Of a DNA stretch of 34,816 nucleotides, positions 1 to 34,816 are shown piece by piece (position 1 is the first letter of the stretch; the number at the start of each line of letters is the position of its first letter). The position numbers were made by a program, and so were the translations under genes. The notes under the pieces are model-generated. The model ran no database searches. It saw only the letters and a program-made list of their open reading frames with translations, and was not told the origin of the DNA. The stretch is from the IMG/VR virus record IMGVR_UViG_3300025880_000042, one strand, 5' to 3'. This DNA comes from a virus.

Positions 1-91
1 CTTAAATACTATTTTATCAATTAGCTTTCTCATTTATTTTCTCGTTTAGTCGTTTAATATCTTTTCTTACTCTTTCCCTTTCAAGTTTTAT
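1..91. repeat. Terminal direct repeat, left copy (identical to 34726..34816); circular closure or terminal redundancy
   Basis: Bases 1-91 recur base-for-base at 34726-34816. ORFs read through the junction. Confidence 0.95.
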
Positions 92-3058: not shown

Positions 3059-3658
3059 TTATTGTTCTTGTGAAATTGATGTCCAATACTCGCCTGTGGC
3101 AGTTACTACGACTTGAATAAAGTTTATTCCTGTTGTTGGTGTTCCTGCTATAATTTTAGTCCCTGTTGGTAGCGTAAAAGTGTTTCCGTCAGCGTTAATG
3201 ATTAAGTCTTTAACCATTCCTATTTCTGTGCCTGCATATGTAAAATCAGTCGTTCCTGTAAGTGTTTTAGTAAATACTTGGGCTGAACCAAAATTAACTT
3301 CTGCGGCACTTATAACCGCACTTTCTGTAAATTCTACTGCTAACTTATCATATGTAACAATATCGTTAGCTAAGTGTACTGTATCAATAGAACCATCTAC
3401 GTATTGGTCTGAATCTACTGAATTAGCAGCCATTTTAGCGTTTGTTACTCCGCCATCAGTTATACTTACCGCTACCTCTCCTGTGGTTGGGGTAGCTGTT
3501 ATACCTCCACTACCTGTTACTGAGTTTACATCACTTGCATCAGCATCATATAATTCAGTGAAGTTTTCATTTATCCACTGAAAAGCCGTTGCTAATGGAG
3601 TTCCATTACCTGAATCTGCCCCTACAGCAGGTATTGTTACTATTGTTTTTTTTGCCAT
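3059..3658 (-). CDS. Tail fibre-like structural protein
   Basis: 199-aa ORF. The N-terminal GTPLATAFQWINENFTELY resembles the conserved N-terminal motif of many phage fibre proteins. The rest is Thr/Gly/Ala/Val-rich. Confidence 0.5.
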   Translation of the reverse strand: MAKKTIVTIPAVGADSGNGTPLATAFQWINENFTELYDADASDVNSVTGSGGITATPTTGEVAVSITDGGVTNAKMAANSVDSDQYVDGSIDTVHLANDIVTYDKLAVEFTESAVISAAEVNFGSAQVFTKTLTGTTDFTYAGTEIGMVKDLIINADGNTFTLPTGTKIIAGTPTTGINFIQVVVTATGEYWTSISQEQ

Positions 3659-4473: not shown

Positions 4474-6288
4474 TTATTTTTTAGTGTTTGGATAAGCTCC
4501 CCCATTCTTCATGTCAGAAGGTCTTACTGATACTTCTTTTGGGTTTTTGGGTTCAACAAATCCTTCTTCTGTAGCATCTGAAGCTTCAACTTCTGTGTTC
4601 TTACCCACTTTTTTCTTATAGACTCTTCTCTCCCACATGTGCTTACAGTTTTTTCCACCTTTGTAGAGAAACAAGCTATAGTTTTGCTTCTTATGTCCAA
4701 GATCTCTGTTAGCTCCTTTGAAAGACATCATTCCAATATCTTCTTTTCTAAACACTACATCTTTTTTAGTCAGAGCTTCCATCTTCTTGCAAAACACTCT
4801 ACTGTTAGCACTATTTCTTACAGGACCATAAGCATATCTTACTTTAAACCCTGCATTATCTTGCTTAGAGTCTTTATTGGGGTTGGCATCATCCTTAGAT
4901 ACTTTAGCTAAACTTGTTTTAAGCTCTTCTAATGAGGTTTCTGTTCCATCTAATAGTTGACTATCAATTAACTCCCATTCATCGCTTATAACCTCTCCTA
5001 AGTCTTCTAATTGCTCAAGCATATCCTCCCCATCTTCATCAGAGAAATCATCTAACTCAACTTCTTTTTGAGACGATAGGTTTTCAGATTGCTTCTCCCC
5101 TGTCTCTTCTTCCTTTCTTACTTTAGTAGATATGTTGTCTAACTCTGTAAATTCAATAGGTTGTAGAGTAATAAAGTATAGGTTTAAGAAGATTCCGTTA
5201 AAGTTTAGTATCTCGTTAAATCCATCAATTAAAGCCTGCTGAAATGGTCTAATAACAACATTGTCCATTATAATAGAAGCTGTTCTAAGCTCTTCTGCAT
5301 TGTTACCAAAGCCTGTGTTGTCCTTAATACCCATCAAGATAGGTGAAACAATTCTGTGACCCATCATAATCTTCTCTCTACTTTCTGTAGATAAGAATTG
5401 ATATTGTGCATGAGCATCAGGTAAATGTATTGGCTCTAAGTCAGCTTTAGTTTCTGCAGAGTCATTAAATGTAAGTATGAATTTACCTGCATTAGATGTT
5501 CCGCTAAACTTGTCGTATATCTTACTTTCTAATAACTCCTGAGTCTCTTCATTAGGTACTCCGTTATTAAAGTTGATTAGTAAGGAAGGTTGTAGACCAT
5601 TCTTTATGTTGTTGATATGGTAGTTAGATACTTCTTCTTCTAAAGAACAGTATTGTAAACAACCATTATAATCTACAGGTGCATAGTAATAAAAACCTGC
5701 TTTGTAAGGCTTAATTACAAATAACTCAATAACATCTGAATCAGAACCATTACCAAAAGTTGGTATTCTCTTAGGTTTGTCAGATGGTTTTATATCACAC
5801 CATTTAGGGTGGTAGTAGTAAGCTTTTATTTGACCATCAGTAGCTTTCTCAGCTCTTAATGTCTCCATTGGAAAGTGTAGTACTTTTACTATACTTGTTT
5901 TTTGCTTGTTGTAAACAAGCTGCATTGCAGACTGCCCAAGCATTTTATAGTCATTAACTACTTTCTTAACCTCTTTAGGTTTAAGTAGTAACTTCATTTT
6001 AGCATACATCTCAGGCTTAACATCTGAGTCAGTTGCATCTAAACCTCTACCATAAATCATCTCTACAATACCATTGATACAACCTGAATTGGTTGGACTA
6101 CCTAAGTATCTGTCAATTAACTGATCAAAGTAATCATTGTTTTCACCATACTGAACCCAATCCTTACCATACACCTCCTTAATCTCAGGAGCAGCATATC
6201 CTGAAAGATTAACAACCCTCACAGAACCCTCGCTAAATTTATTAGCAGGTTTTACGTTGTTATTTAATGTTACTCTTCTTTTAGCCAT
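4474..6288 (-). CDS. Portal protein fused to a C-terminal Mu-F / SPP1 gp7-like minor head domain
   Basis: 604-aa ORF. The N-terminal two thirds are portal-like (GSPTNSGCINGIVEMIYGRGL). An acidic linker is followed by SRVFCKKM...GGKNCKHMWERRVY, which resembles the Phage_Mu_F signature (R..C...nCrC/H). Confidence 0.7.
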   Translation of the reverse strand: MAKRRVTLNNNVKPANKFSEGSVRVVNLSGYAAPEIKEVYGKDWVQYGENNDYFDQLIDRYLGSPTNSGCINGIVEMIYGRGLDATDSDVKPEMYAKMKLLLKPKEVKKVVNDYKMLGQSAMQLVYNKQKTSIVKVLHFPMETLRAEKATDGQIKAYYYHPKWCDIKPSDKPKRIPTFGNGSDSDVIELFVIKPYKAGFYYYAPVDYNGCLQYCSLEEEVSNYHINNIKNGLQPSLLINFNNGVPNEETQELLESKIYDKFSGTSNAGKFILTFNDSAETKADLEPIHLPDAHAQYQFLSTESREKIMMGHRIVSPILMGIKDNTGFGNNAEELRTASIIMDNVVIRPFQQALIDGFNEILNFNGIFLNLYFITLQPIEFTELDNISTKVRKEEETGEKQSENLSSQKEVELDDFSDEDGEDMLEQLEDLGEVISDEWELIDSQLLDGTETSLEELKTSLAKVSKDDANPNKDSKQDNAGFKVRYAYGPVRNSANSRVFCKKMEALTKKDVVFRKEDIGMMSFKGANRDLGHKKQNYSLFLYKGGKNCKHMWERRVYKKKVGKNTEVEASDATEEGFVEPKNPKEVSVRPSDMKNGGAYPNTKK

Positions 6289-6668: not shown

Positions 6669-6713
6669 ATTATGATAACTGAAAAGTTAAAATTTGTTTT
6701 TATTTTGGTGTAT

Positions 6714-6744
6714 AAAAAAAGTGGAGAGTAATAAAACCCCCCAC
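6714..6744 (-). terminator. Rho-independent terminator after the putative tail-tube gene
   Basis: Minus strand reads GUGGGGGG-UUUUAUUA-CUCUCCAC (8-bp stem with two G-U pairs) followed by U7. Confidence 0.6.
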
Positions 6745-6757
6745 TCTTTAATGTGTG

Positions 6758-6783
6758 TACTATGTTTAAGTACTATGTTTAAG
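6758..6783. repeat. Exact tandem duplication of the 13-mer TACTATGTTTAAG
   Basis: Copies at 6758-6770 and 6771-6783 are identical. The second copy contains the TAA stop (6779-6781) of ORF 6779..7306. Confidence 0.95.
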
Positions 6784-7306: not shown

Positions 7307-7334
7307 TTGTTATATATTTTAAGGTTATTGTTAT

Positions 7335-7371
7335 AAAAAAAGGGCAGGCAGGCTTTACGGCTTACCTACCC
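7335..7371 (-). terminator. Rho-independent terminator after the major capsid gene
   Basis: Minus strand reads GGGUAGGUAAGC-CGUAAA-GCCUGCCUGCCC (12-position stem with two G-U pairs and one mismatch) followed by U7. Confidence 0.7.
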
Positions 7372-7393
7372 TTTATCTTTATTTAATTTCTAA

Positions 7394-8326
7394 TTATGCA
7401 GGTGTGTAAAGAACGATGTCTGAACCGATTCCGTACTGTACTCCACTTGTGTAACGCATTACCACACGAACATTCTGACTTCCATCAATGTCTGCCATGT
7501 CAATAACCTTTACTAAGTTATGGTCTGAAAGTAATCCTGTTCCGAAGAAGATGTTAGATTTTTCAGCAGCCATGATGTAGTTATCTCCCAATCCGTTTGC
7601 AACAAAGATTTTTACACCATCAAAAGATAATGCTCCGTTGTTCCACCATTGAGTTCCTTGTGCATTCACACCATTAGCACCTAATCCTGCAGCTCCAAAT
7701 CCTCCTAAAGCTCTAACGTAAGCTCTTGCTACGTTTTGAGATACATATAGGTACAAGTCTTCTTTTCCGTAAACTGCAGATGGAATAGCATCAACAACTT
7801 TCCCTAATTCGTCAATTACGTTAGCAGCAGTAATAGAAGTTCCTGCTACATCAACAACAGAAGCATCAGCAGTAGCCAAAGCAACTAATCCATCGAATTC
7901 ACCTGCAGTAGCGTTAGCTCCTGACCAAATAGTTTCCTCTGTTTTTTCAGCAACTTTAGCAGCAACATGTGCAACTAAGAAGTCTTGAAAAGATGGAGGC
8001 AAGTTGTCAAATGCAGAATATCCCATTTGTACTGCTTCCCAATCAGATACGAAGTCTTTCTTACATAATTCTAAGTTTACTTGAAACTCTTCAGGTTGTA
8101 AGATTCTTTCAGTTAATGTAATAGTTGAAGTAGGATCAAAATCACAAGTTGCATCTGCAACAAGGTCATTTGTAGATAATTTTTTCATTACCTCTTTGTA
8201 CTTCACATTTGGTTTTACTGTAATTCCACCATTCTCAATAGTAGAAGCAGATAATAAAGCAGCAGAGATATATTTACCTGCAAACTCACCTGCGTAAGTA
8301 GTAGTAATGTTAGTAGTTGTAGCCAT
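7394..8326 (-). CDS. Major capsid protein (HK97-fold type)
   Basis: 310-aa ORF directly after an acidic scaffold-like gene and followed by a strong terminator. The sequence character is typical of phage major capsid proteins. Confidence 0.7.
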   Translation of the reverse strand: MATTTNITTTYAGEFAGKYISAALLSASTIENGGITVKPNVKYKEVMKKLSTNDLVADATCDFDPTSTITLTERILQPEEFQVNLELCKKDFVSDWEAVQMGYSAFDNLPPSFQDFLVAHVAAKVAEKTEETIWSGANATAGEFDGLVALATADASVVDVAGTSITAANVIDELGKVVDAIPSAVYGKEDLYLYVSQNVARAYVRALGGFGAAGLGANGVNAQGTQWWNNGALSFDGVKIFVANGLGDNYIMAAEKSNIFFGTGLLSDHNLVKVIDMADIDGSQNVRVVMRYTSGVQYGIGSDIVLYTPA

Positions 8327-9667: not shown

Positions 9668-10574
9668 CTATCTCTTTTAGTTTAGATATTGCCCAATTAA
9701 CACCTGCAGAACCACCCCAAGCATCCCACATAATACCTCCGCATCCTTCAGAGTAAGGTACATCTTTGTTTTGTTGATGTCTTTTAAATGAAGCCATTCT
9801 TGCAATAGTGGACCTACTTAAAGGCTCTTTATTTGCTAATTGATTAGCTCTTGTCCAACCCACAGAAGTTCCGCATGAAGAACCATTATCTTTCTTCCAT
9901 TTTAAGGCTCTCTTAGCGTTGTTTACGGCTCCTTGAGGGTAATCACTATAAGATTCAAGTTCTACTCCCTGAGCCTCTAAAAATGACTCCTCGAGTGCGT
10001 ATATCTGAGATAAAGCTTCCATTTCTGCAAAGTCTTCTTCTACAGACTCTCTTGGTCTTTCTTTAGAAGCATCTGCAAAGAATCCTTCAATACTGAATCC
10101 CTTAACCTTTCCGCTCTTGACAAATTCCTCCCAAATCTGATCGTTGTTTACTTTAACAGAAACCATCCAAGTACCCATAGGTACGTTTAGGTTGTATTTT
10201 TTGCTCTTGTCTTTTTCTAAGTCTTCTACTATCCAAGACTCTACGACTGACATGCCATTTAGTTCGACATCATGCTCCAATGTTGAATTGTTTTGTTTAC
10301 CTCTTGATAAAAACAACTCTGAAGCTTTCCTGACAGTTTCCTCGCTAAAGAAAATATAATATTCTTCTTCGCCATTAGTTCTGTATATTTTTTTATTAGG
10401 TATGAGAGCAGCACCCATAAGGATTCTCTTCTCAGTATCTACTTCAGCCAACTTAACTTCATGACTGTTCAATGCTATAAAGTCTTCTTCTATAGCAGGG
10501 TTCTCAACGATAGAGATAGCCTCTATTCCACTAAACTCGTTTTCTTCGTCTATATATAGTTCAATAGTCTTCAT
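9654..10574 (-). CDS. XkdF-like prohead protease with an extra C-terminal domain
   Basis: 306-aa ORF. The N-terminal 170 aa (ILMGAALIPNK...EHD...VESWIVED...GTWMVSVKV...GFSIEGFF) resemble the PBSX XkdF / S78-like family. The C-terminal 100 aa (AKRALKWKKDNG...MWDAWGGSAGVNWA) form a separate domain. Confidence 0.55.
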   Translation of the reverse strand: MKTIELYIDEENEFSGIEAISIVENPAIEEDFIALNSHEVKLAEVDTEKRILMGAALIPNKKIYRTNGEEEYYIFFSEETVRKASELFLSRGKQNNSTLEHDVELNGMSVVESWIVEDLEKDKSKKYNLNVPMGTWMVSVKVNNDQIWEEFVKSGKVKGFSIEGFFADASKERPRESVEEDFAEMEALSQIYALEESFLEAQGVELESYSDYPQGAVNNAKRALKWKKDNGSSCGTSVGWTRANQLANKEPLSRSTIARMASFKRHQQNKDVPYSEGCGGIMWDAWGGSAGVNWAISKLKEIDESN

Positions 10575-10610
10575 AAAATGATAACTTAATTTGTTGATTT
10601 TGTTTTATTA

Positions 10611-12872
10611 TTAACCTAAACTTGCAGTTGAAACAATGTTCCTATCCATCTCCTGTGCAGTAGACACATCTTTAGATACTACATAAGCTTTTACAGGTTG
10701 GTTAAATTGACCTTGTACTGCAGAAGCTAATTGATTACTTGCAGACTGACCTACTATGTTAAAATCAGGTGGTTGTATAGATGGTGCTGCCGCAGCTCCT
10801 CCGCCTGCACCTCCTTTAGGTGATGGAACTTCTGTTTTAAGTATATTTCTTACTTGCACAAATCCCATGGCTGCAACTGCTGCTGCTTGAGCAATATTCC
10901 ATGGTCCATAAGGTTTTGCTCCTAATGCCGCTGTAACTGCTTCATAAGTGTTCATGGTAGCCATAGCAACCGCAACTGCTTTACCTACAGCAGAACCTTC
11001 TCCTGCGATAGCTATAATTGCTTCACCTACTTGATTAGCAATAGCAAGTTTAGCTTGTTCACCATCTTCAAAAGCCTGAAGCCTTTTTTGATTTAACTCT
11101 TCTGTAGCATTAGCTATTTGCTGATCTTGAACAAAAGTATCTTGACCCGCCTTTATTCTAATCTTCTTCTCTTCCTCTATTAAGGCTATTTTTTGTGCAG
11201 CTTTTTCTTGCTCTAAAGCAAAGTTAGCGTCTATTCTATCTAAATCATTTGTAGCTAAAGCAGCAACAGAAGCTAATTCAGCAACTTGATTTTCATTTAG
11301 TAGTTGTTCAAATGCAAGGTTTTTCTGCCTTTCTAACTGAAGAGATTTATTGTTGAAGGAAGCTTCAAGTGCTAATAAAACATCATGATACTCTTTTCTT
11401 GCTGCTGCTGCAGAAGCATAAAACTTTGTTCTACCATCTCCAAGTTCTTTTTCAGCTTGCTCTACTTCTTTTCTTGTAGACTTACTGTTGTTTATAATAG
11501 CTTCTTTTTCTGCTCTAAATTCAGCAAATCTAAGCCTTTCCTTTTCTAAGAAATCATCTCTTCTTCTTTTGAGGTCAAGAATAGCAGCCTCTTTGTTTAT
11601 TTGAAGCCTTTCTTCTTCTGTGGTTCTTTCATCTGTTAAAGATTCTTTTCTGTACTTTAACTCGAGCTTTCTTAGGTTTAATAATCTCTGTTTAAAGAAA
11701 TCATCTATATTTTTAGCAGAAGCACCTCTACCTTTTTTGTCTTCTTTACATGTACCAAGCAATAAACAGAAAAATGGATTATCTTTATATCTATCCGCAA
11801 TTTCTTTTAGCCTCTTTTCGGAATCAGAACTTATAGCTTTAAATGAATCATTGTTTTTTCCTATTTCTTCTGTTAAAGCAGTCCAAGTTTTTGTATAGTT
11901 TTTATTTAGCTTCTCTTTGTTTATATAACTTTTCTGACCTCTCGCTTCTAAATCCTCTGCTTCTTGTAGTTTGCCTAAATATTCTTCAGTAGCAGAAGTT
12001 AGCTGTTCGTTCAGCTCAATATCTTTCTCTATTACTTTCTGAAGTTTCTTCTTTGTTATTTCTTCAGTAGCTTCAAACATAAGAAGATCCTTCTTGATAG
12101 CTAAATAATCATCAATACTACCAATAGCTTCATCAAAACCTTCTTTTTTTAGTCTTTCTAAAGCTACTCTTTGACTTGCAGTAGAAGCGGTTGAGTCTTT
12201 TAGTACAGCAGCTAATGACTCTATAGCAGCTACTTGACCTTTAGCTCCAACTATAGCTTCTGTAGCTTCCTCTGTAGCTCTTTTTGCCTCTCTTTGAGAT
12301 AAAGTGTATTTTTCTATAAAGAATATAACTAATTGAAATGCAATGATAAGTCCACCTGCACCAAGCATTTGCTTGCCCAAGTCTTTCATCGCATTTTTGA
12401 ACCCCTTGCTTTGATCAACTAAAGAAACAAAATAGTAACCTAATTGAGACAAGTTGTTTGCTACCGCCGTAAATCCGTAGTTAGCATCAGAGATAGTCCT
12501 ACCAACTTCGACAAGTGTTTGTGAGGCTAAACCTGCACTATTACGCATACCCTTAAAGCCTTGGCTTACAGCAGAATTTTTACCTTGGAACGTAGATAGT
12601 TCTTTTTGAAGACCTTCTATAGTTCTTTGATATTGCACATACTCAAAAGAAGTTATCTCAACAGATTTTTGTAATTGTCTTTGATAAGTAATCTGATCTC
12701 TTATAGACTGCTCAGTTCTTTTATAAGCAGGCTGTACAGCACCAACTAATGTTTTAGATAGATTCTTCTCCGCTGTATCTAACTTGCTGATACTTGAAGT
12801 TAGTCCATCAATCTCAAGCTTGCCTTTGCCGAAATCAACCCTTATGTTAATTATCTTAGTTAAATCTGCCAT
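10611..12872 (-). CDS. Tape measure protein
   Basis: 753-aa ORF with long coiled-coil stretches, an internal hydrophobic segment (GAGGLIIAFQLVIFFI) and an Ala/Gly-rich C-terminal region, as in siphovirus tape measure proteins. Confidence 0.6.
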   Translation of the reverse strand: MADLTKIINIRVDFGKGKLEIDGLTSSISKLDTAEKNLSKTLVGAVQPAYKRTEQSIRDQITYQRQLQKSVEITSFEYVQYQRTIEGLQKELSTFQGKNSAVSQGFKGMRNSAGLASQTLVEVGRTISDANYGFTAVANNLSQLGYYFVSLVDQSKGFKNAMKDLGKQMLGAGGLIIAFQLVIFFIEKYTLSQREAKRATEEATEAIVGAKGQVAAIESLAAVLKDSTASTASQRVALERLKKEGFDEAIGSIDDYLAIKKDLLMFEATEEITKKKLQKVIEKDIELNEQLTSATEEYLGKLQEAEDLEARGQKSYINKEKLNKNYTKTWTALTEEIGKNNDSFKAISSDSEKRLKEIADRYKDNPFFCLLLGTCKEDKKGRGASAKNIDDFFKQRLLNLRKLELKYRKESLTDERTTEEERLQINKEAAILDLKRRRDDFLEKERLRFAEFRAEKEAIINNSKSTRKEVEQAEKELGDGRTKFYASAAAARKEYHDVLLALEASFNNKSLQLERQKNLAFEQLLNENQVAELASVAALATNDLDRIDANFALEQEKAAQKIALIEEEKKIRIKAGQDTFVQDQQIANATEELNQKRLQAFEDGEQAKLAIANQVGEAIIAIAGEGSAVGKAVAVAMATMNTYEAVTAALGAKPYGPWNIAQAAAVAAMGFVQVRNILKTEVPSPKGGAGGGAAAAPSIQPPDFNIVGQSASNQLASAVQGQFNQPVKAYVVSKDVSTAQEMDRNIVSTASLG

Positions 12873-18127: not shown

Positions 18128-18400
18128 CTAACTTTTATATGCCCTTTTAATGGCATCTGCTTCTAATTTATTCTTCTCCTTCTCAAACTCAAGCCATATT
18201 AAGCATTGCTGTAGTGGAAGCTTGGTAACTTCTGAAATCCTTCTGACATCTCCCTGTGCAAGTCCGTAAATACTTTGATACCATCCCCACTTCTTTCCAA
18301 ATCCTTGTTCTGCGGTTGCAATTTGACCTGCTTGTCCACCTGATGCTGTAAATAGTCCATCATATAACCCGATAATTTTTTCCCTAAACGATAAAAAAAA
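18128..18400 (-). CDS. Start-less -1 frame extension reachable from ORF 18199..18927 by slippage on a T9 run
   Basis: Hand translation of the -1 frame after T_TTT_TTT (18394-18400): LSFREKIIGLYDGLFTASGGQAGQIATAEQGFGKKWGWYQSIYGLAQGDVRRISEVTKLPLQQCLIWLEFEKEKNKLEADAIKRAYKS. It stops at TAG 18128-18130, 2 nt before the next ATG. This frame contains no start codon. Confidence 0.5.
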   Translation of the reverse strand, partial: FFLSFREKIIGLYDGLFTASGGQAGQIATAEQGFGKKWGWYQSIYGLAQGDVRRISEVTKLPLQQCLIWLEFEKEKNKLEADAIKRAYKS

Positions 18401-18927
18401 ACAACCGCTCCTAAAGCAACATTTACAGGGGCATCTTTCATTATCTCTGCATACTTATCAGATCCTTCATAGTCCTCTATCACATAGAAACCTTTTTTAC
18501 CTGCAACAATAGGTCTATATAGCACGGCTAAAGCCTTGTGCATGTTCTGCCAATCCCCAATGTATTTCTCTACATCAATATACTCACCAAAGCTCATTTC
18601 ATCTAACTTAGGTATAAAGCCAAACTCTGCAGACACACCATCACTACCTGTCATGGTAAATCTCTGAACTAAAGGGGTATCCTCGTTAAAACACTCAGCT
18701 ACTTGTGCTATCACACTCTCAAACATAGATACAGGTAAACCATAACTATCCTTCAAAGTAAGATCACAGAATATCTCTAAAGACTTTAGATTTAAGAACT
18801 CTAATGCTTCAGGTGTCTCCTTATCTTCTATCCCATCTAATATCTTCAAATACTTCTGATACTGATGCAACTTGATAGCCTCTAAAGCCTGTGGCACTTT
18901 TACTTCTAAATCAACTACATTGCTCAT
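18199..18927 (-). CDS. Tail assembly chaperone-like protein (0-frame product)
   Basis: 242-aa ORF. MSFGEYIDVEKYIGDWQNMHKALAVLYRPI resembles tail assembly chaperone families. It carries the slippery T9 run. The 0-frame stop leaves an atypical 73-nt gap to the next gene. Confidence 0.45.
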   Translation of the reverse strand: MSNVVDLEVKVPQALEAIKLHQYQKYLKILDGIEDKETPEALEFLNLKSLEIFCDLTLKDSYGLPVSMFESVIAQVAECFNEDTPLVQRFTMTGSDGVSAEFGFIPKLDEMSFGEYIDVEKYIGDWQNMHKALAVLYRPIVAGKKGFYVIEDYEGSDKYAEIMKDAPVNVALGAVVFFYRLGKKLSGYMMDYLQHQVDKQVKLQPQNKDLERSGDGIKVFTDLHREMSEGFQKLPSFHYSNA

Positions 18928-19376
18928 ATAATAATCTCTATATATAGTATAACTAAAATCTATAATTATGTATCACTTATGAATAAACTATAAATTTTAT
19001 TTATGGTTAATTAAACAAATATAATAAAATAATATGACAATAGAGTGGTTTATGCTTGTACAAATTCCTGTTTTTTAGTTATCTTAGTATAGCAGTTGGA
19101 AATCTGTATAAGTTCCCAAACTTGTGTCATAAATGTTAGGCACTTGGATCAAGTAAACCTTGCTTAGGAATTGCGGTATTAGAACAATCTACTTTTATAT
19201 CTTTTGATGCACCCCAATACCATTCAACCTAACCATTCATTCAGCCATACAGTCTATTGGCACAGACACATATTAAAGATATTAAGGGGGTGCTTACATC
19301 TTCTTTCCATTTAATTCTATCAAGTCACCTCACTTGTACTTCCCTTAGAGAGTTACAACTAAGGTTACCAAAAGTT

Positions 19377-19457
19377 ATTGAATTCATAGAATCGGGTTAA
19401 TACACATACTAATCTTTCGTTTTACATTGAATTCATAGAATTGAGATAATACACATA
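19377..19457. repeat. Two 32-bp direct repeats (iteron-like), 49-bp period
   Basis: 19377-19408 is ATTGAATTCATAGAATCGGGTTAATACACATA and 19426-19457 is ATTGAATTCATAGAATTGAGATAATACACATA, a 29/32 match. Each has a TGAATTCA palindrome and ends in TAATACACA. Confidence 0.9.
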
Positions 19458-19525
19458 GAATATATTTATATTACGATCATTTAGCATAAGTAAACCTTAT
19501 ACTTAATCTAAGGCTATTTAGAGCG

Positions 19526-19561
19526 TGTTTAAGAGTGTTTAGAGTGTGGATAGTGTTAAGG
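19526..19561. repeat. Four tandem degenerate 8-10-mers including a DnaA-box-like 9-mer
   Basis: TGTTTAAGAG / TGTTTAGAG / TGTGGATAG / TGTTAAGG. TGTGGATAG (19545-19553) matches the complement of the DnaA box TTATCCACA at 8 of 9 positions. Confidence 0.7.
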
Positions 19562-19654
19562 TATTATTAATTTGTAATGGTTTGTTACCCCTATCCTATC
19601 TACTATATATGTAAACCAATAACCTACAAAAAAAGGCTATTAAAAACAAGGCAT

Positions 19655-19678
19655 AAAAAAACCCCCAATTAAGGAGGT
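19655..19678 (-). terminator. Rho-independent terminator closing the small-ORF island
   Basis: Minus strand reads ACCUCC-UUAAUU-GGGGGU (6-bp stem with one G-U pair) followed by U7, located 29 nt after the stop of ORF 19707..19931. Confidence 0.6.
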
Positions 19679-19706
19679 TTAAGACTGTTTAAATTGTAGG
19701 TATAAA

Positions 19707-19931
19707 TTAGGGGTTAATATATTTTAAAATTGTACCTATGTTTTCTAATTGCTCTTGATCTATGCTGAAATAGTTTGTTTTATTGCCATGCTCGTCACGA
19801 ATACAAAAGGAAAACCTTTGCTCTGTTCTTGCTAACCTATTGAATTGACTTTCTATATAATTATAGTTTAATAACCATTTGTCATTTTGTGTGTTTGTTT
19901 TCATGTCTTTAGTCTTTTTTAATGTGAACAT
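19707..19931 (-). CDS. Hypothetical small protein (accessory island)
   Basis: 74-aa ORF. An alternative ATG at 19904 would remove the 23-nt overlap with the upstream gene. Confidence 0.5.
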   Translation of the reverse strand: MFTLKKTKDMKTNTQNDKWLLNYNYIESQFNRLARTEQRFSFCIRDEHGNKTNYFSIDQEQLENIGTILKYINP

Positions 19932-21753: not shown

Positions 21754-21785
21754 GGTGTTTTTTGTTTTAATGATTAATTACATTT

Positions 21786-21816
21786 CAAATGTACACCCTT
21801 TTTTTAAATAAACAAT
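21786..21816 (-). promoter_or_regulatory. Candidate Bacteroidota-type promoter for the small-ORF island
   Basis: Minus strand reads ATTG-N19-TACATTTG, compared with the consensus TTTG-N19-21-TAnnTTTG. The box ends 32 nt upstream of the ATG at 21753. Confidence 0.4.
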
Positions 21817-21964
21817 ACCATGCAAGAAAAAAACACACTTTTTTTTCACTTTTAACACTTTTTTAAGTTAAACCTTTGTTTTATCATGGTTTACATCTTT
21901 TCAAATACTTATATAATGAATCCCGCACACGCAAATACACCTTTATTTGAATTGTGCAAGCATT

Positions 21965-22011
21965 TTAACATTTATTTAACATTTGTAGGAAAATGGCTAC
22001 ATGTAGGAAAA
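21965..22011. promoter_or_regulatory. Cluster of short repeats and a 10-bp palindrome (operator-like)
   Basis: TTAACATTT occurs twice (21965 and 21976). TGTAGGAAAA occurs twice (21984 and 22002). There is a perfect palindrome CTACATGTAG at 21997-22006. Confidence 0.45.
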
Positions 22012-22034
22012 ATAACACAAGGGGCTAAGACCCC

Positions 22035-22128
22035 TACTATGTTTAAGAAGATGGTTGACCCCCTACTATGTTTAAGAGGATAGTAAACACCCTACTATGT
22101 TTAAGAAAAAACCCCTACTCGGTTTAAG
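22035..22128. repeat. Four same-orientation copies of the 13-mer TACTATGTTTAAG
   Basis: Copies start at 22035, 22064 and 22093 (all exact, each preceded by CCC) and at 22116 (TACTCGGTTTAAG). Spacing is 29/29/23 bp. Confidence 0.95.
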
Positions 22129-22136
22129 AGTAAGGG
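22106..22136 (-). terminator. Rho-independent terminator after the large terminase gene
   Basis: Minus strand reads CCCUUACUC-UUAAACC-GAGUAGGGG (9-bp stem with one G-U pair) followed by U6. The loop and 3' arm are the fourth 13-mer copy. Confidence 0.6.
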
Positions 22137-22178
22137 AAATAAAAAAAAATATTTTTACTGCCGTAGCAAAAAAAAAAA

Positions 22179-23399
22179 TTATCTAACTACATACTTTCCT
22201 GAATTAACTCCTTGCACTAAATATTGTAAAGAATATCTACAGGCATCCAAGAAGTGATTCCATTTGTCTATTGGCTTAGAGTTCTTATCCTGCCAAGTAT
22301 AGTTGTTAAGCTCTCTAATAACACCATGAGATTCTCTATCAACTATTATCTCAAAGTCTTGCATCAAGGCAATACCACTTAAAATACTCCCTTGTCTTTT
22401 GATAGTTGGTTTAACATTGACTCCTTTGCGTTTCATCTCGTTTATAAGTCTTGGTTCAGAGTTATCACAAATGATCAGGTCCATGCCGCACTCCATCTTA
22501 TTCCTTGTAGCTATCTCATCTGTGCTTAGACTCGGTTTACCATAAATCTCTTTAACCCACATCTTTCTACCTTCTTTATCTACAGAAATCTTTACAAGAG
22601 TTGTTAAATCGGTTGCGAACCCAAAATCCTGCCCATAACATGTATGCTCGGTCTGTAAGTACTCACCTACTCTCCAATTCTTAAAGATTGTTCCCTCTGC
22701 CTTAGCTAACCATCCCCCAAGGATCTGATGTTGGTATTTGTCAGGTCTTCTCTTCTTCATGTCCATTACCTGCACTAAGAAAGAGTCTGATAGGTTATCT
22801 TTATTATCTCTGTAGTCTGTGTGTATGTAAGTTATATCATTGTTAGAACCATTATAAGCATCTATAACACCATAAGACTGAAAGAATCTTTGGTATATCC
22901 AATGCTCTTTAGTTGTGGGGTTTAATATCAGAATACACCTGTTCTGTTTAGTCTGACTCCTTACAGAGAAGTCTATCTTATCAAAGACTGACTCATCTAT
23001 AAGCTCTTCTGCCTCATCTAATACAAAGGTTGTAACTCCGTTTAAAGACTTTAAAGCAGCAGTTTGATTACCCGATGATGTTCTAATACCCTTAAATATT
23101 ATAGAGCTTCCTGTAGTTAGATTTATGATCTCATCTTTAGTTATCCTAAAGTCTTCTGATACACCCATCATATCTATCTTCTCTATAAATTCAGGGATAA
23201 TAGAAGTCTGTGCGGAGATCATGGTATATCTTGTAAACAATACCTTATGACCTTCTTCATAGGTTAAGTTAAGTAAGAAAACGGCTACACCAAATGATTT
23301 ACCTGATCCTCGACCACCTGTAACTACAAAGTACCTACTTGGACTCTGCCATAGTGGTATATATTTCTCATGTATCTTTACCTCTTGTTTACTACTCAT
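22179..23399 (-). CDS. terL: Terminase large subunit (PBSX/XtmB-like family)
   Basis: 406-aa ORF. It has a Walker A motif (VVTGGRGSGKSF), a Walker B-like motif (TFVLDEAEE) and a C-terminal nuclease-like region, with the overall pattern of Terminase_3/PBSX-type large subunits. Confidence 0.85.
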   Translation of the reverse strand: MSSKQEVKIHEKYIPLWQSPSRYFVVTGGRGSGKSFGVAVFLLNLTYEEGHKVLFTRYTMISAQTSIIPEFIEKIDMMGVSEDFRITKDEIINLTTGSSIIFKGIRTSSGNQTAALKSLNGVTTFVLDEAEELIDESVFDKIDFSVRSQTKQNRCILILNPTTKEHWIYQRFFQSYGVIDAYNGSNNDITYIHTDYRDNKDNLSDSFLVQVMDMKKRRPDKYQHQILGGWLAKAEGTIFKNWRVGEYLQTEHTCYGQDFGFATDLTTLVKISVDKEGRKMWVKEIYGKPSLSTDEIATRNKMECGMDLIICDNSEPRLINEMKRKGVNVKPTIKRQGSILSGIALMQDFEIIVDRESHGVIRELNNYTWQDKNSKPIDKWNHFLDACRYSLQYLVQGVNSGKYVVR

Positions 23400-26021: not shown

Positions 26022-26038
26022 AATAATTGTTTTAATGT

Positions 26039-26161
26039 TTATCTTAATGATGCCTCAAAGCATTGTGTTGAACATTCTCCTGCCTTATCCATAGGCTTTC
26101 CACATACTGAACATTCATAATCCTGCTCTTGTGGTTCTTCTAAGTAATCAAAGTAATTCAT
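26039..26161 (-). CDS. Small zinc-ribbon-like ORF (40 aa)
   Basis: Hand translation: MNYFDYLEEPQEQDYECSVCGKPMDKAGECSTQCFEASLR, with CxxC...CxxxC. It is preceded by a promoter-like box and a terminator. Confidence 0.4.
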   Translation of the reverse strand: MNYFDYLEEPQEQDYECSVCGKPMDKAGECSTQCFEASLR

Positions 26162-26182
26162 ATCTTATGTTTTAATGTTAAA

Positions 26183-26213
26183 CAAATATAAACAAAAATT
26201 GTTAATATTCAAC
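26183..26213 (-). promoter_or_regulatory. Candidate Bacteroidota-type promoter
   Basis: Minus strand reads GTTG-N19-TATATTTG, ending 21 nt upstream of the ATG at 26161 and directly after terminator 26222..26251. Confidence 0.35.
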
Positions 26214-26221
26214 TATGATAT

Positions 26222-26251
26222 AAAAAAAAGGAGAGATTTAATTGTCTCTCC
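26222..26251 (-). terminator. Rho-independent terminator
   Basis: Minus strand reads GGAGAGA-CAAUUAAA-UCUCUCC followed by U8. It overlaps the stop codon of small ORF 26238..26378. Confidence 0.7.
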
Positions 26252-26378
26252 ATTGAATGTAGCATACTGCTCGCCTTTGTTGTATGTTAGGGTATTCCCT
26301 AAGCATAACATCATCAGCCATACACCTGCTCATAAAATCCTTTTGCATCTCATCTTCTCGTGGTATTGGTAGTGGCAT
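26238..26378 (-). CDS. Small ORF (46 aa)
   Basis: Hand translation: MPLPIPREDEMQKDFMSRCMADDVMLREYPNIQQRRAVCYIQWRDN. It starts 2 nt after the upstream stop. Confidence 0.45.
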   Translation of the reverse strand: MPLPIPREDEMQKDFMSRCMADDVMLREYPNIQQRRAVCYIQWRDN

Positions 26379-26380
26379 AA

Positions 26381-28096: not shown

Positions 28097-28660
28097 TTAG
28101 TTTTTATTTATTAAATGATAGTCTCCGTTATAAAAGTCAAGGACATCTTCTTCAAACTTGTCCTTTAGTATTTTCTTATAATTCTTCACAGAGTTAAAGA
28201 TAGAGGTTAAGCTGATCTTACTTCCTGTAGCTATATCTCTCAAAGATAGATTAGATTTGTAGTATGTGTTGCACAACTTAGCATCGTACAAGTGCCAAGA
28301 GTTTATCTCTTCTGTAATACTACTCATTAACTTAGTGAAAGCCTGATCCTTTTCGAGGTCTGTCATGTCGTTAATAAACATCTCATCTTCATCATCTTCC
28401 TTGTCAGTCTCTATATACTCAAAGAAAGTATATTTATTTTTAGCTTTCCTGTAATCTATGTAAAGGTTTTTAAGTGTTACAAATACATAAAACCTATTAA
28501 CCTCTTCATCATTGTACATTATTTTATTCTCATCAGATATAAGTCTATGCAGTTTAATGTACATTTCTTGCACAATATCCTCCGCAACATCTTTAGAGCA
28601 ACCCATGTTTATAACCATCTTCAGCCACAACAAGTGTTCTTTAGCTAATAGTTCTAACAT
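28097..28660 (-). CDS. Phage-encoded sigma-70 family (ECF-like) sigma factor
   Basis: 187-aa ORF. It has a region-2-like segment (VAEDIVQEMYIKLHRL...FYVFVTLKNLYIDYRK) and a region-4 HTH-like segment (LSLRDIATGSKISLTSIFNSVKNYKKIL). Confidence 0.6.
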   Translation of the reverse strand: MLELLAKEHLLWLKMVINMGCSKDVAEDIVQEMYIKLHRLISDENKIMYNDEEVNRFYVFVTLKNLYIDYRKAKNKYTFFEYIETDKEDDEDEMFINDMTDLEKDQAFTKLMSSITEEINSWHLYDAKLCNTYYKSNLSLRDIATGSKISLTSIFNSVKNYKKILKDKFEEDVLDFYNGDYHLINKN

Positions 28661-34211: not shown

Positions 34212-34239
34212 TACTATGTTTAAGAGTACTATGTTTAAT
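34212..34239. repeat. Two copies of the 13-mer TACTATGTTTAAG filling the endolysin-holin junction
   Basis: 34212-34224 is an exact copy. 34227-34239 is TACTATGTTTAAT (1 mismatch) and contains the endolysin TAA stop (34235-34237). The first copy ends 1 nt from the holin-like ATG. Confidence 0.95.
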
Positions 34240-34603: not shown

Positions 34604-34758
34604 ATAATCTTACCTAATAAAATACTTGTTAAAACCATTACTAACATGACAAATAAAGCAAACTGAAACTTATCCCAAGTACTACCATTTTTCTTTTGGT
34701 GTAGCCATATCTTAAATTCTATAAACTTAAATACTATTTTATCAATTAGCTTTCTCAT
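34600..34758 (-). CDS. Small ORF (52 aa) with a C-terminal TM helix, crossing into the terminal repeat
   Basis: Hand translation: MRKLIDKIVFKFIEFKIWLHQKKNGSTWDKFQFALFVMLVMVLTSILLGKII. It has an ATGA overlap with the endolysin start. Its ATG (34758, equivalent to position 33) overlaps the 3' end of ORF 17..310. Confidence 0.45.
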   Translation of the reverse strand: MRKLIDKIVFKFIEFKIWLHQKKNGSTWDKFQFALFVMLVMVLTSILLGKII

Positions 34759-34816
34759 TTATTTTCTCGTTTAGTCGTTTAATATCTTTTCTTACTCTTT
34801 CCCTTTCAAGTTTTAT
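34726..34816. repeat. Terminal direct repeat, right copy (identical to 1..91)
   Basis: Exact 91-bp match to the window start. Confidence 0.95.

Follow-up and report, generated by a model that had tools for sequence, protein, structure and literature searches.

Organization of the intergenic region

We analyzed the 779-bp region at positions 18928-19706 of a viral DNA of 34,816 nucleotides (the window), in which every gene lies on the minus strand and a standard large terminase and portal are encoded. On that strand the region extends from the stop of the gene at 19707-19931 to the start of the gene at 18199-18927, and Pfam and PHROGs searches returned no function for either of these flanking genes. 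An earlier note on this DNA had described the region as an ORF-free gap, and it indeed has no ORF that reaches 50 aa: the longest on the plus strand (TTG start) measures 47 aa and the longest on the minus strand 26 aa. The same note described the genome as otherwise gap-free, which is wrong: a second gap of 425 bp is located at 21754-22178, and other ORF-less stretches of 110-359 bp occur elsewhere in the working gene list, some of them containing short ORFs in a fuller ORF listing. The center of the region is less AT-rich, as had been suspected, with a GC content of 0.36 at 19100-19400 versus 0.21-0.29 in the flanks. ARAGORN detected no tRNA or tmRNA genes in the window, and a scan with the sigma-70 consensus promoter gave matches at chance level only. 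Terminator-like hairpins were seen by eye within the late operon at 7307-7393 and 6669-6778.

The gap is a composite region. In the order proposed along the minus strand, the terminator of the upstream small-ORF island would be followed by ~350 bp of conserved DNA motifs that are probably a promoter or operator region, then by an RNA gene of ~206 nt, and finally by an AT-rich run-in that would lead to the first tail-module gene. The individual features are as follows:

19659-19680 (minus): intrinsic terminator closing the upstream island of small ORFs, AAACCUCC-UUAAUU-GGGGGUUU and then a U run
19509-19548 (minus): three CTCT(T)AAA(C/T)A units, similar to half of the CTTAAACATAGTA motif
19488-19504 (minus): small conserved hairpin AAGUA-loop-UACUU, seen by eye in alignment A7
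19377-19457 (minus): two 32-nt direct repeats 49 nt apart, each with (C)TATGAATTCAA, the upstream copy continuing ...TGTAAAACGAAA
19321-19366 (minus): CCUUAG/CUAAGG and CAAGU/ACUUG hairpins, lineage-specific filler outside the conserved element
19088-19293 (minus): conserved structured RNA core of 206 nt, from the S1 5' strand to the P8 3' strand, defined by covariance and homologues
19072-19087 (minus): conserved tail CUAAGAUAACUAAAAA
19016-19023 (minus): candidate -7 promoter box TATATTTG

The terminator previously assigned to the small-ORF island corresponds to the hairpin at 19680-19659, the stem of which carries compensatory changes among relatives (AAAGGCUA/UAGCCUUU and AAGCCCC/GGGGCUU, alignment A7). 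The reported iterons amount to the three short CTCT(T)AAA(C/T)A units and nothing beyond those; the CTTAAACATAGTA motif is present in other intergenic regions, CTCTTAAACACGCTCTAAATAGCC is near-invariant at 19509-19548 across the window's lineage, and this stretch is possibly a protein-binding or promoter region. Of the reported DnaA-box-like sites, a single one was found (CTATCCACA at 19545-19553, an 8-of-9 match), but it is not conserved in relatives and does not exceed the chance level, with 16 near-matches genome-wide versus 11.4 expected. The hairpin at 19488-19504 reads AGGUA/UAUUU in L324 and L355 and pairs there via G.U on the minus-strand reading only, a hint that the minus strand might be transcribed upstream of the core. 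Several other lineages also have the (C)TATGAATTCAA motif, ~60-200 nt ahead of the RNA, and the two repeats that contain it are candidates for the RNA's promoter or operator. The CCTTAG/CTAAGG and CAAGT/ACTTG hairpins are present in the window as noted earlier but are deleted in its closest relatives (L251, L322, and L301; alignment A7). Similarly, the 11-nt direct repeat AAGTAAACCTT is exact but not a conserved repeat pair, because L251 and L322 differ at several positions within the copy that lies inside the RNA.

Downstream of the core, the CUAAGAUAACUAAAAA tail is probably a separate element, either a 3' part of the RNA or a DNA site adjoining the downstream promoter, since L001 and L003 retain the tail without the RNA core. 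The TATATTTG box matches the Bacteroidetes -7 promoter consensus, TAnnTTTG, and is a candidate host-type promoter of the tail-gene operon. This box is not conserved, because L322, L301, and L349 have a ~600-bp insertion at its site (containing an HNH gene in L322). The TATATTTGTTTAA string also occurs in the 26022-26380 gap.

Conservation and fold of the RNA core

The homology search suggested for this region, using a covariance model built from 11 relatives and then from 46, returned full-length matches at 53-219 bits on contigs from IMG/VR and metagenomes, amounting to 46 distinct homologues. They include dozens of uncultured marine phages and represent about eight lineages, with many of them closely related. 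The match on the window spans 19062-19294, where model R1 scores 209 bits. The window and L251 share 90% identity in the core, compared with ~82% in the surrounding 1.2 kb, and the sole in-helix substitutions between the two are a compensatory pair at positions 19217 and 19179.

Across the 46 homologues, pairing is kept through compensatory changes in seven helices, namely S1, X, P3, P4, P6, P7', and P8. Three of these, S1, X, and P3 (extended by P4), are mutually crossing and are arranged around a 6x6 internal loop (UUGAAU/GCAAUU) that hardly varies. The crossing core is the first pseudoknot of the RNA, P7'/P8 is the second, and an insert in the window's lineage is the third. From 5' to 3', the elements of the core are:

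19287-19293 (minus): S1 5' strand GCACCCC, pairs with 19209-19215
19275-19282 (minus): X 5' strand AUAUCUUU, pairs with 19197-19204 and crosses S1 and P3/P4
19244-19267 (minus): optional inserted H-type pseudoknot, GUCUGU-GCCA-AUAGAC-UGUA-UGGC
19228-19232 (minus): P4 5' strand UUAGG, covarying
19222-19227 (minus): internal-loop strand UUGAAU (GUGAAU in one lineage)
19216-19221 (minus): P3 5' strand GGUAUU, covarying
19209-19215 (minus): S1 3' strand GGGGUGC, directly adjoining the P3 5' strand
19197-19204 (minus): X 3' strand AAAGAUAU, pairs with 19275-19282
19175-19180 (minus): P3 3' strand AAUACC, covarying
19169-19174 (minus): internal-loop strand GCAAUU, invariant
19164-19168 (minus): P4 3' strand CCUAA, covarying
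19124-19150 (minus): conserved GAUCCAA, variable hairpin P6 (GUG...CAC), and conserved AAGUUUG
19088-19116 (minus): 3' H-type pseudoknot P7'/P8 with covarying stems
19113-19116 with 19098-19101 (minus): P7', GGAA/UUCC, covarying
19104-19110 with 19088-19095 (minus): P8, UAUACAG/CUG-C-UAUA, covarying

In the four core helices of 24 distinct sequences, 94% of cells pair, versus 71.8% in shuffles and 35-45% in slid registers. The register of helix X was optimized for each sequence, which inflates the pairing percentage of X; no such optimization was applied to S1, P3, and P4, for which invariant motifs served as anchors. None of 500 shuffles reached 94% core pairing, and double changes were observed in 18 of the 27 core pairs. 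For X, an unconstrained 'longest helix' test had too little power in AU-rich sequence, and anchored blocks were used instead. RNAalifold independently found P3 and P4, with compensatory changes in 9 of 14 pairs. The MFE z-score of -0.14 was unremarkable, as expected when pseudoknots are ignored, and this score was uninformative on either strand.

The pair of complementary segments GATGCACCCC and GGGGTGC..CATC singled out in the earlier note exists and is the conserved helix S1 (19287-19293 with 19209-19215), in which three of seven pairs show double changes and one pair is A-U in 13 sequences and G-C in 10. Helix X occurs in approximately ten sequence versions, all complementary, with double changes in seven of nine pairs. 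The first three to four pairs of P6 appear as UAGG/CCUA, GUGA/UCAC, GUGG/CCAC, GUGU/ACAC, GUAU/AUAC, UCAG/CUGA, and CAG/CUG. Variants of P7' include GAAG/CUUC, GCAA/UUGC, GUUG/CAAC, GUAG/CUAC, and GUGG/CCAC, and those of P8 include ACAGA/UCUGU, AUAGA/UCUAU, AGAG/CUCU, and ACUCC/GGAGU. Both stems of the insert are kept in the variants GUUAUU-GCCU-AAUAAC-AGGC and GUUCUU-GCAA-AAGAAC-UUGC; versions of this pseudoknot were recognized by eye in L269 and L271, and lineages A, E, F, and H are without it. Two further hairpins seen in the window, P5 (CAAG/CUUG) and P7 (AAGUU/AACUU), are unsupported across lineages, and P7' accounts for the double changes better than P7. Comparison of the homologous sequences establishes both the conservation and the fold, in which S1 (7 bp) and X (8-9 bp) would be connected by linkers of 1-4 nt and 4 nt. 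Among the options raised in the earlier note, a structured non-coding RNA is thus strongly supported by conservation and compensatory changes in seven helices of 46 homologues, and we are highly confident that the conserved core is a functional structured RNA.

From these sequences we infer that the RNA is expressed, that it is transcribed from the minus strand, and that its ends lie as given above. A U.G pair closing P3 is invariant in all 46 homologues, with further G.U pairs close by, in L339 and L210 intrinsic terminators follow the RNA on the same strand, and the minus strand is also the one that carries all genes of the window. The counts of wobble versus A.C cells in the four core helices (16 versus 13) do not decide the strand.

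Genomic contexts and patchy distribution

The RNA was found in at least four genomic contexts. In the first, it lies 7-750 nt upstream of a homologue of the 18199-18927 gene, and at some loci the two are separated by an HNH gene on the opposite strand or by a small ORF; in lineages A-E it is always directly upstream of this same late gene, on the same strand and with no terminator in between. In the second (L339 and L210), it stands alone, divergent from the neighboring genes and followed by terminators. In L339, a terminator and an operator-rich promoter region separate it from the next genes, and in L210 its terminators are followed head-on by the end of the structural operon. In the third context (L260), the RNA is downstream of an endolysin homologue, and in the fourth (L271), a bacterial-looking contig, it is located beside tRNA-Met and an integrase fragment. 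ARAGORN identified no tRNA or tmRNA at the element in L210, L339, L260, or L271.

The distribution of the RNA among related genomes is patchy. Only one of 40 relatives of L210 carries it, and a second model, R2, detected no divergent copies in the other 39 or in 72 further loci. L358 has the same slot and the same terminator module, with a 65-aa ORF in place of the RNA. It is absent from L001, L003, and L005, whose flanking protein is 63-65% identical and thereby as close as in the RNA-carrying relatives, as well as from the L018-L080 relatives that have the same late genes. In the cultured Nonlabens phage P12024, TerL is directly followed by the 18199-18927 homologue, with neither a gap nor the RNA. 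Because of its four contexts, the terminator on its own strand, and its absence from close relatives, we read the RNA as an autonomous accessory gene, an assignment that is probable on the present evidence.

Comparison with known RNAs

The RNA matches no Rfam 15 family. Searches of the whole window against the 4227 models at gathering thresholds gave no match; at E-values up to 10, the 1.25-kb segment 18700-19950 produced only noise (9-22 bits) outside or across the core, and at E-values up to 5 none of ten homologous loci yielded anything on the element. No real match was obtained when 50,697 GenBank phage records were searched by megablast and blastn with the gap and with the L339 unit. A sequence-pattern scan of 185,579 species genomes gave 25 matches, none of which was matched by the covariance model. 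We found no description of this RNA in the literature.

GOLLD and ROOL RNAs form stand-alone units in phage or prophage genomes; they are 500-800 nt long and occur near tRNA genes, mostly in Firmicutes and in rumen or lake samples. The present RNA resembles them in being a complex-folded, strongly covarying non-coding RNA recognized by comparative genomics, whereas it is only ~200 nt long, has no sequence or model match to them, and is found in marine Flavobacteriia-type siphophages. Both of these 'ornate' RNAs are orphan Rfam families that have been studied by cryo-EM (bioRxiv 10.1101/2024.12.08.627333). With HK022 put it shares its position in a phage, at the head of a long operon, and the lack of a fixed distance to the controlled genes. 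In contrast, put is a cis-acting processive antiterminator consisting of two simple stem-loops of ~70 nt in total, and the present RNA has at least seven helices and two to three pseudoknots and also occurs in terminated, stand-alone copies. The phi29 pRNA is likewise a phage-encoded structured RNA (120-174 nt), which acts in trans as a machine part; it is known only from phi29-like podoviruses, whereas the window encodes a standard large terminase and portal, and no Rfam model, pRNA included, scores on the present RNA. The likeness to the dicistrovirus IGR IRES (~190 nt, three pseudoknots, intergenic ahead of structural genes) is one of form only: the latter is a eukaryotic RNA-virus element abutting a start codon, whereas the phage RNA has a variable distance to the gene, can have opposite-strand genes in between, and occurs in some stand-alone copies. 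HDV-like ribozymes similarly have a 7-bp first helix where conservation begins, crossing helices, and variable peripheral inserts. Their nested double pseudoknot has the strand order P1-P2-P3-P3'-P1'-P4-P4'-P2', which differs from the order found here, S1-X-P4-P3-S1'-X'-P3'-P4', and no HDV-type model of Rfam scores.

Proposed role and alternative explanations

The best overall explanation, to which we assign a probability of approximately 0.7, is that the gap is a composite region containing a pseudoknotted RNA that is probably an accessory unit and may act in trans. The main competing explanation, which we consider unlikely, is that the RNA serves the late operon (tail and head genes) as a leader in cis, folding on the nascent transcript and controlling downstream expression. 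Such a leader might, for example, make RNA polymerase terminator-resistant in the manner of the HK022 put RNA or protect the 5' end of the long late mRNA. The arrangement in lineages A-E, on the same strand and directly upstream of the first tail-module gene, fits a leader, as does the window itself, where no terminator-like site lies between the RNA and this gene and the hairpins at 7307-7393 and 6669-6778 inside the late operon would require read-through. Moreover, relatives tolerate an opposite-strand HNH gene or small ORF in between, and the insertion in L322 replaces the candidate -7 box, suggesting that transcription of the late genes may start at a promoter ahead of the RNA. A put-type antiterminator layout is compatible with lineages A-E and L339 but not with L210, where terminators and then a convergent structural operon follow the RNA. 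Further arguments against a leader are the terminator and operator-rich promoter region downstream of the L339 copy, the absence of the RNA from L001, L003, L005, the L018-L080 relatives, and P12024, all with the same late genes, and a fold far more elaborate than that of put. The late-gene control region considered in the earlier note is a possible reading: conserved DNA motifs lie upstream of the RNA, but some copies of the RNA are not near late genes, and close relatives with the same late genes lack it. Somewhat less probable than a leader is a new self-cleaving ribozyme or ligand-sensing, riboswitch-like RNA, with the knotted core and the 6x6 loop as its pocket. In favor of this possibility, conservation sets in sharply with the first S1 base, which recalls ribozymes whose cleavage site is at the 5' edge, and the many invariant unpaired bases, covarying helices, and several pseudoknots are characteristic of RNAs that catalyze reactions or bind ligands. 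Phage intergenic regions also commonly harbor small ribozymes. However, no Rfam ribozyme or riboswitch model scores on the 1.25-kb query or the ten homologues, and the strand order is not the HDV-like one. A riboswitch would combine an aptamer with an expression platform upstream of a consistent gene set, whereas the RNA occurs in four contexts, has no expression platform or terminator after the core in the window, and is 7-750 nt from the next gene, with opposite-strand genes between them at some loci and some copies standing alone.

Explanations that dispense with an RNA fare worse. That the region is only a DNA-level element, such as a replication origin, a packaging site, or a late promoter/operator array, with the complementary segments acting as DNA inverted repeats, is very improbable. 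The AT-rich flanks, short direct repeats, DnaA-like box, and conserved DNA motifs upstream of the core are consistent with it, but duplex DNA gives no reason for compensatory changes that keep crossing helices 50-90 nt apart. The replication origin raised as one option in the earlier note is unsupported: GC skew has no inflection at the gap and cumulative skew is monotonic, the single 8-of-9 DnaA-like site is unconserved and at chance level, the repeats are three short units only, and the genome's stronger tandem repeat array occupies 22030-22130, within the other gap. A long ORF-free region in a compact genome might suggest that a protein gene has decayed or that sequencing introduced a frameshift, but the chance of this is negligible given that 46 independent assemblies contain this ORF-free element, with indels that are not multiples of three, stops in every frame, and substitutions that are concentrated in loops or compensatory. 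No ORF is conserved across the homologues; the 26-aa frame of the window is, by eye, interrupted by a TAG codon in several lineages, and stop codons in other lineages disrupt a small conserved-looking peptide (VWELIQIS...).

Under the preferred explanation of an accessory, trans-acting RNA, the element would be a self-contained 'RNA moron' that moved between phage genomes rather than a fixed late-gene control. It would act through its tertiary fold, most plausibly on a protein or small ligand bound at the invariant loop. We tentatively favor such a trans-acting binder or decoy over a cis leader, ribozyme, or riboswitch, although the odds of this specific role are somewhat below even. A bolder and more doubtful proposal is that the RNA constitutes a new class of compact, multiply pseudoknotted RNAs carried as independent cargo in marine Flavobacteriia phages and endowed with its own biochemical activity: it could be catalytic, bind a specific ligand, or act as a decoy that inhibits a host factor such as a defence or RNA-processing enzyme.

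Ribozymes, riboswitches, and RNA-protein machines have repeatedly emerged from the class of complex, pseudoknot-rich RNAs in which many unpaired bases are invariant. Bacteroidota are a dominant group in the sea, yet their phages have yielded very few such RNAs. At ~200 nt, the present RNA is short enough for direct biochemistry and structure determination, and a usable alignment and covariance model for it now exist. Its behavior as a mobile accessory gene would extend the picture of phage 'morons' and anti-defence from proteins to structured RNAs; should it be a late-gene leader after all, no element of that kind would have been described before in this group of phages. The analysis also removes the annotation of the gap as a replication origin, which is tempting but lacks support. 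The RNA could already sit among the unnamed candidates of Fremin et al. (2023; PMC10690425), who reported 10,006 csRNAs of viruses and also screened IMG/VR.

Genome setting and the ORF-free gap

An identical 91-bp direct repeat at both ends of the window (1-91 and 34726-34816) marks it as a complete, circularly assembled phage genome with a unit length of 34,725 bp. Every plausible gene is encoded on the minus strand. PHROGs identifies the following:

22179-23399 (-), large terminase (TerL)
4474-6288 (-), portal
7394-8326 (-), major capsid-like protein
28097-28660 (-), sigma-factor-like protein

The nearest cultured relative is the flavobacterial Nonlabens (Persicivirga) phage P12024S/L, with a TerL identity of 49.5%, and no DNA-level match to the gap region was found among GenBank phages. 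The structural module ends with a 673-aa protein (515-2536, minus strand) in which ...DQVRIFN(K/T)AL... closes each of three repeats and the linkers are rich in cysteine. This protein is probably a receptor-binding fibre whose lectin-like domain is present in three copies.

The gap at 18928-19706 separates the small-ORF island, whose stop is at 19707, from the first tail-module gene, which starts at 18927. As the earlier note had described, it is free of ORFs (the longest on either strand has 47 aa), its G+C content rises in the centre relative to the flanks, and a terminator-like hairpin (19680-19659) follows the small-ORF island. The accompanying description of an otherwise gap-free genome does not hold: a second gap, of 425 bp, occupies 21754-22178, and by the working gene list ORFs are also lacking from several stretches of 110-359 bp.

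A family of homologous RNAs

Eighty IMG/VR loci were collected via the flanking protein encoded at 18199-18927. Comparison of the gap with these loci by blastn revealed a single block of ~165 nt (window 19072-19235), ~70% conserved, in 13 loci that have only 59-65% identity in the flanking protein; no ORF spans the block in these relatives. In four successive alignments (A1-A4), invariant runs were broken by positions changing in pairs. Searches of IMG/VR and JGI/ENA metagenomes with pattern scans and a covariance model (R1) built from the RNA of relatives yielded at least 46 distinct full-length matches (53-219 bits) and several more ended by contig ends, a diversity of about eight lineages. 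Contig names (Tara, "marine metagenome") indicate marine samples. When species genomes of bacteria and archaea (185,579) were searched for exact copies of the invariant motifs, a criterion that divergent copies could escape, the model rated all hits as chance matches. The core is 90% identical between the window and a close relative, L251, and the sole in-helix substitutions between them form a compensating pair (19217 and 19179).

Searches against Rfam 15 returned nothing at gathering thresholds, nothing meaningful for the gap region at E values up to 10, and nothing for the element in ten homologous loci, and ARAGORN detected no tRNA or tmRNA. We found no description of the RNA in the literature, leaving aside the 10,006 unnamed candidate structured RNAs of an IMG/VR screen (PMC10690425, 2023).

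Fold of the RNA

The element (19088-19293, minus strand) comprises a 5' core of four helices (S1, X, P3, and P4) and a 3' part. Blocks were anchored on the invariant motifs CCCC/GGGG (S1) and UUGAAU and GCAAUU (P3 and P4), and the register was optimised for X alone, fitted per sequence. In 24 distinct sequences, the four helices formed standard pairs in 94.0% of cells, compared with 71.8% after shuffling (reached in 0 of 500 shuffles) and 35-45% in slid registers. The covariation score was 0.595 (0.18 shuffled, 0.025-0.074 slid), and changes on both sides were observed in 18 of 27 pairs (15.7 shuffled, 3-7 slid). A blind RNAalifold run on the model alignment recovered both P4 and P3, and 9 of the 14 pairs are compensatory.

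Helix S1 is the first complementary pair picked out in the earlier note and is conserved, reading GCACCCC/GGGGUGC in the window and AGCCCC/GGGGCU, GGCCCC/GGGGCC, or CUCACCCC/GGGGUGGG elsewhere; two further hairpins proposed there (19321-19366) are deleted in L251 and two other relatives, L322 and L301. Helix X occurs in about ten complementary versions, such as AUAUCUUU/AAAGAUAU, UAUAACCUU/AAGGUUAUA, UCUGUAUUU/AAAUACAGA, and UGGAUUU/AAAUCCA. The strands follow one another along the RNA in the order S1a, Xa, P4a, P3a, S1b, Xb, P3b, P4b, and S1, X, and P3 therefore cross mutually, an "ABCABC" topology of three crossing helices that is rare.

On the 3' side of the core, the P6 hairpin lies between conserved CCAA and AAGU and is found in eight pairing versions. 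It is followed by a second H-type pseudoknot formed by P7' (GGAA/UUCC, GAAG/CUUC, GCAA/UUGC, GUUG/CAAC, GUAG/CUAC, or GUGG/CCAC) and P8 (ACAGA/UCUGU, AUAGA/UCUAU, AGAG/CUCU, or ACUCC/GGAGU). In the window's lineage and three others, X and P4 are separated by an extra small pseudoknot with two covarying stems (by eye in L269 and L271). At the level of comparative analysis, these data show a conserved, multiply pseudoknotted fold of RNA type with a nearly invariant 6x6 internal loop (UUGAAU/GCAAUU). The structured non-coding RNA suggested earlier as one reading of the gap is strongly supported by a conserved fold and covarying helices across homologues.

Strand and genomic context

Several features favour reading of the RNA from the minus strand, on which all genes of the window lie. 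A U.G pair closes P3 in 46 of 46 sequences, with further G.U pairs in the P3 region. The counts of wobble and A.C cells in the four core helices (16 and 13) favour neither strand. Strong intrinsic terminators lie on the RNA's strand ~480-540 nt from its start in L339 and L210, and the homologous slot of L358 holds a 65-aa ORF oriented as the RNA.

In lineages A-E, the RNA lies 5' of the homologue of the 18199-18927 gene on the same strand, at a distance of 7 to ~750 nt. An opposite-strand 92-aa ORF lies between the two in L006. In L322, this interval holds an opposite-strand gene for a 210-aa HNH homing endonuclease (10069-10701, minus strand); L301 and L349 carry comparably sized insertions at this point. 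In L339 and L210, the RNA stands alone, divergent from the neighbouring gene and followed by terminators; the copy in L210 points towards the end of the structural operon. The RNA of L260 is downstream of an endolysin homologue.

A hairpin-plus-terminator module is common to slots with the RNA (L339:1230-1275 and 1300-1420; L210:7740-7900) and with the 65-aa ORF (L358:5790-5930). In L339, four TTGATAATCAAC-like palindromes between this module and the next genes look like an operator array.

A further family member (L271:1200-1430, minus strand) resides in a 1.3-kb ORF-free stretch of a bacterial-looking contig, near a truncated integrase-like ORF (3128-3325) and a tRNA-Met (3434-3508); by eye, the contig also carries an AnmK-like ORF and the tail of a Fis-type regulator. 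This copy may be a decaying island or a remnant of an integrated element.

The distribution is patchy. Only the contig of L210 itself carries the RNA among 40 IMG/VR relatives of L210, and the core is missing from L001, L003, and L005, which are as close as RNA-bearing relatives. L003 (5071-5529, minus strand; 152 aa) and L001, in the corresponding region, have an opposite-strand ORF beside the locus that resembles a GIY-YIG endonuclease; free-standing homing-endonuclease genes of this and the HNH type beside the RNA locus are consistent with a conserved target sequence nearby. L001 (5600-5870) and L003 (5550-5830) share a different non-coding block of ~270 nt, >90% identical and more conserved than the adjacent endonuclease gene, with hairpins of its own (e.g., AUAACAAC/GUUGUUAU) and, at its end, the same ACUAAGAUAACUA tail as RNA-bearing loci. 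It may be a second, unrelated RNA in the same slot.

In P12024L (JQ823123.1, 22741-24506), TerL is followed within 3 bp by the 18199-18927 homologue, so the small-ORF island, both large gaps, and the RNA are an insertion relative to P12024. The window's whole stretch from TerL to the tail genes therefore resembles an accessory island that ends with the RNA.

Possible function

We infer that the RNA is a self-contained accessory unit, which would be transcribed from the minus strand and act through its tertiary structure. Stand-alone, terminated copies and the patchy distribution favour a role in trans, in which the RNA would bind or decoy a protein or small ligand (probability about 0.4). A cis-acting leader of the late operon is less likely but reasonable for lineages A-E, where the RNA precedes the tail-module gene. 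Somewhat less probable again, the RNA could be a ribozyme or ligand sensor. Explanations at the DNA level are, taken together, very improbable.

Other elements of the gap and the second gap

The window's lineage keeps several DNA motifs 5' of the RNA core:

upstream of core, conserved DNA motif GTAACAAAC
upstream of core, conserved DNA motif CTCTTAAACACGCTCTAAATAGCC
19488-19504, upstream of core, small conserved hairpin
upstream of core, two 32-nt repeats containing TATGAATTCAA

The extended motif ATGAATTCAACGTAAAACGAAA or close variants also occur 5' of the RNA in L209, L037, and L251, with shorter forms in L306 and L311, and it is the best candidate for a promoter or operator of the RNA. Downstream of the RNA, TATATTTG (19016-19023) fits the Bacteroidetes -7 box; the insertions of L322, L301, and L349 are at the position of this box. 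In L006 (3090-3180) and other lineage A loci, an exact TATATTTG box lies 5' of the RNA and precedes two hairpins that have GCAAG in common and are mutually exclusive (ACUUGC...GCAAG versus GCAAGCC...GGCUUGC), a pair that looks like an attenuator.

The gap had also been proposed as a possible replication origin with iterons and DnaA-box-like sites, a role for which no support was found: the cumulative GC skew falls steadily genome-wide with no turn at the gap, a single DnaA-like site (8 of 9 positions) occurs at chance frequency and is not conserved, and the repeats are short, with three half-motifs CTCT(T)AAA(C/T)A. These half-motifs are related to the genome's strongest tandem repeats, located in the 425-bp gap (21754-22178) just after the terminase gene, where about four 29-nt units built on CTTAAACATAGTA(GGGG) occupy 22030-22130. 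A 13-mer of this unit has seven exact copies, which lie on the minus strand without exception and are always arranged as tandem pairs or arrays; the three intergenic sites concerned are 22030-22130, 6758-6783, and 34212-34239. Near-matches number 12 in total versus 3.3 expected. The 29-nt repeats may represent a pac site, iterons, or a promoter or operator specific to the phage; as an iteron or pac-type site, the 22030-22130 array is a stronger candidate than the gap that holds the RNA.
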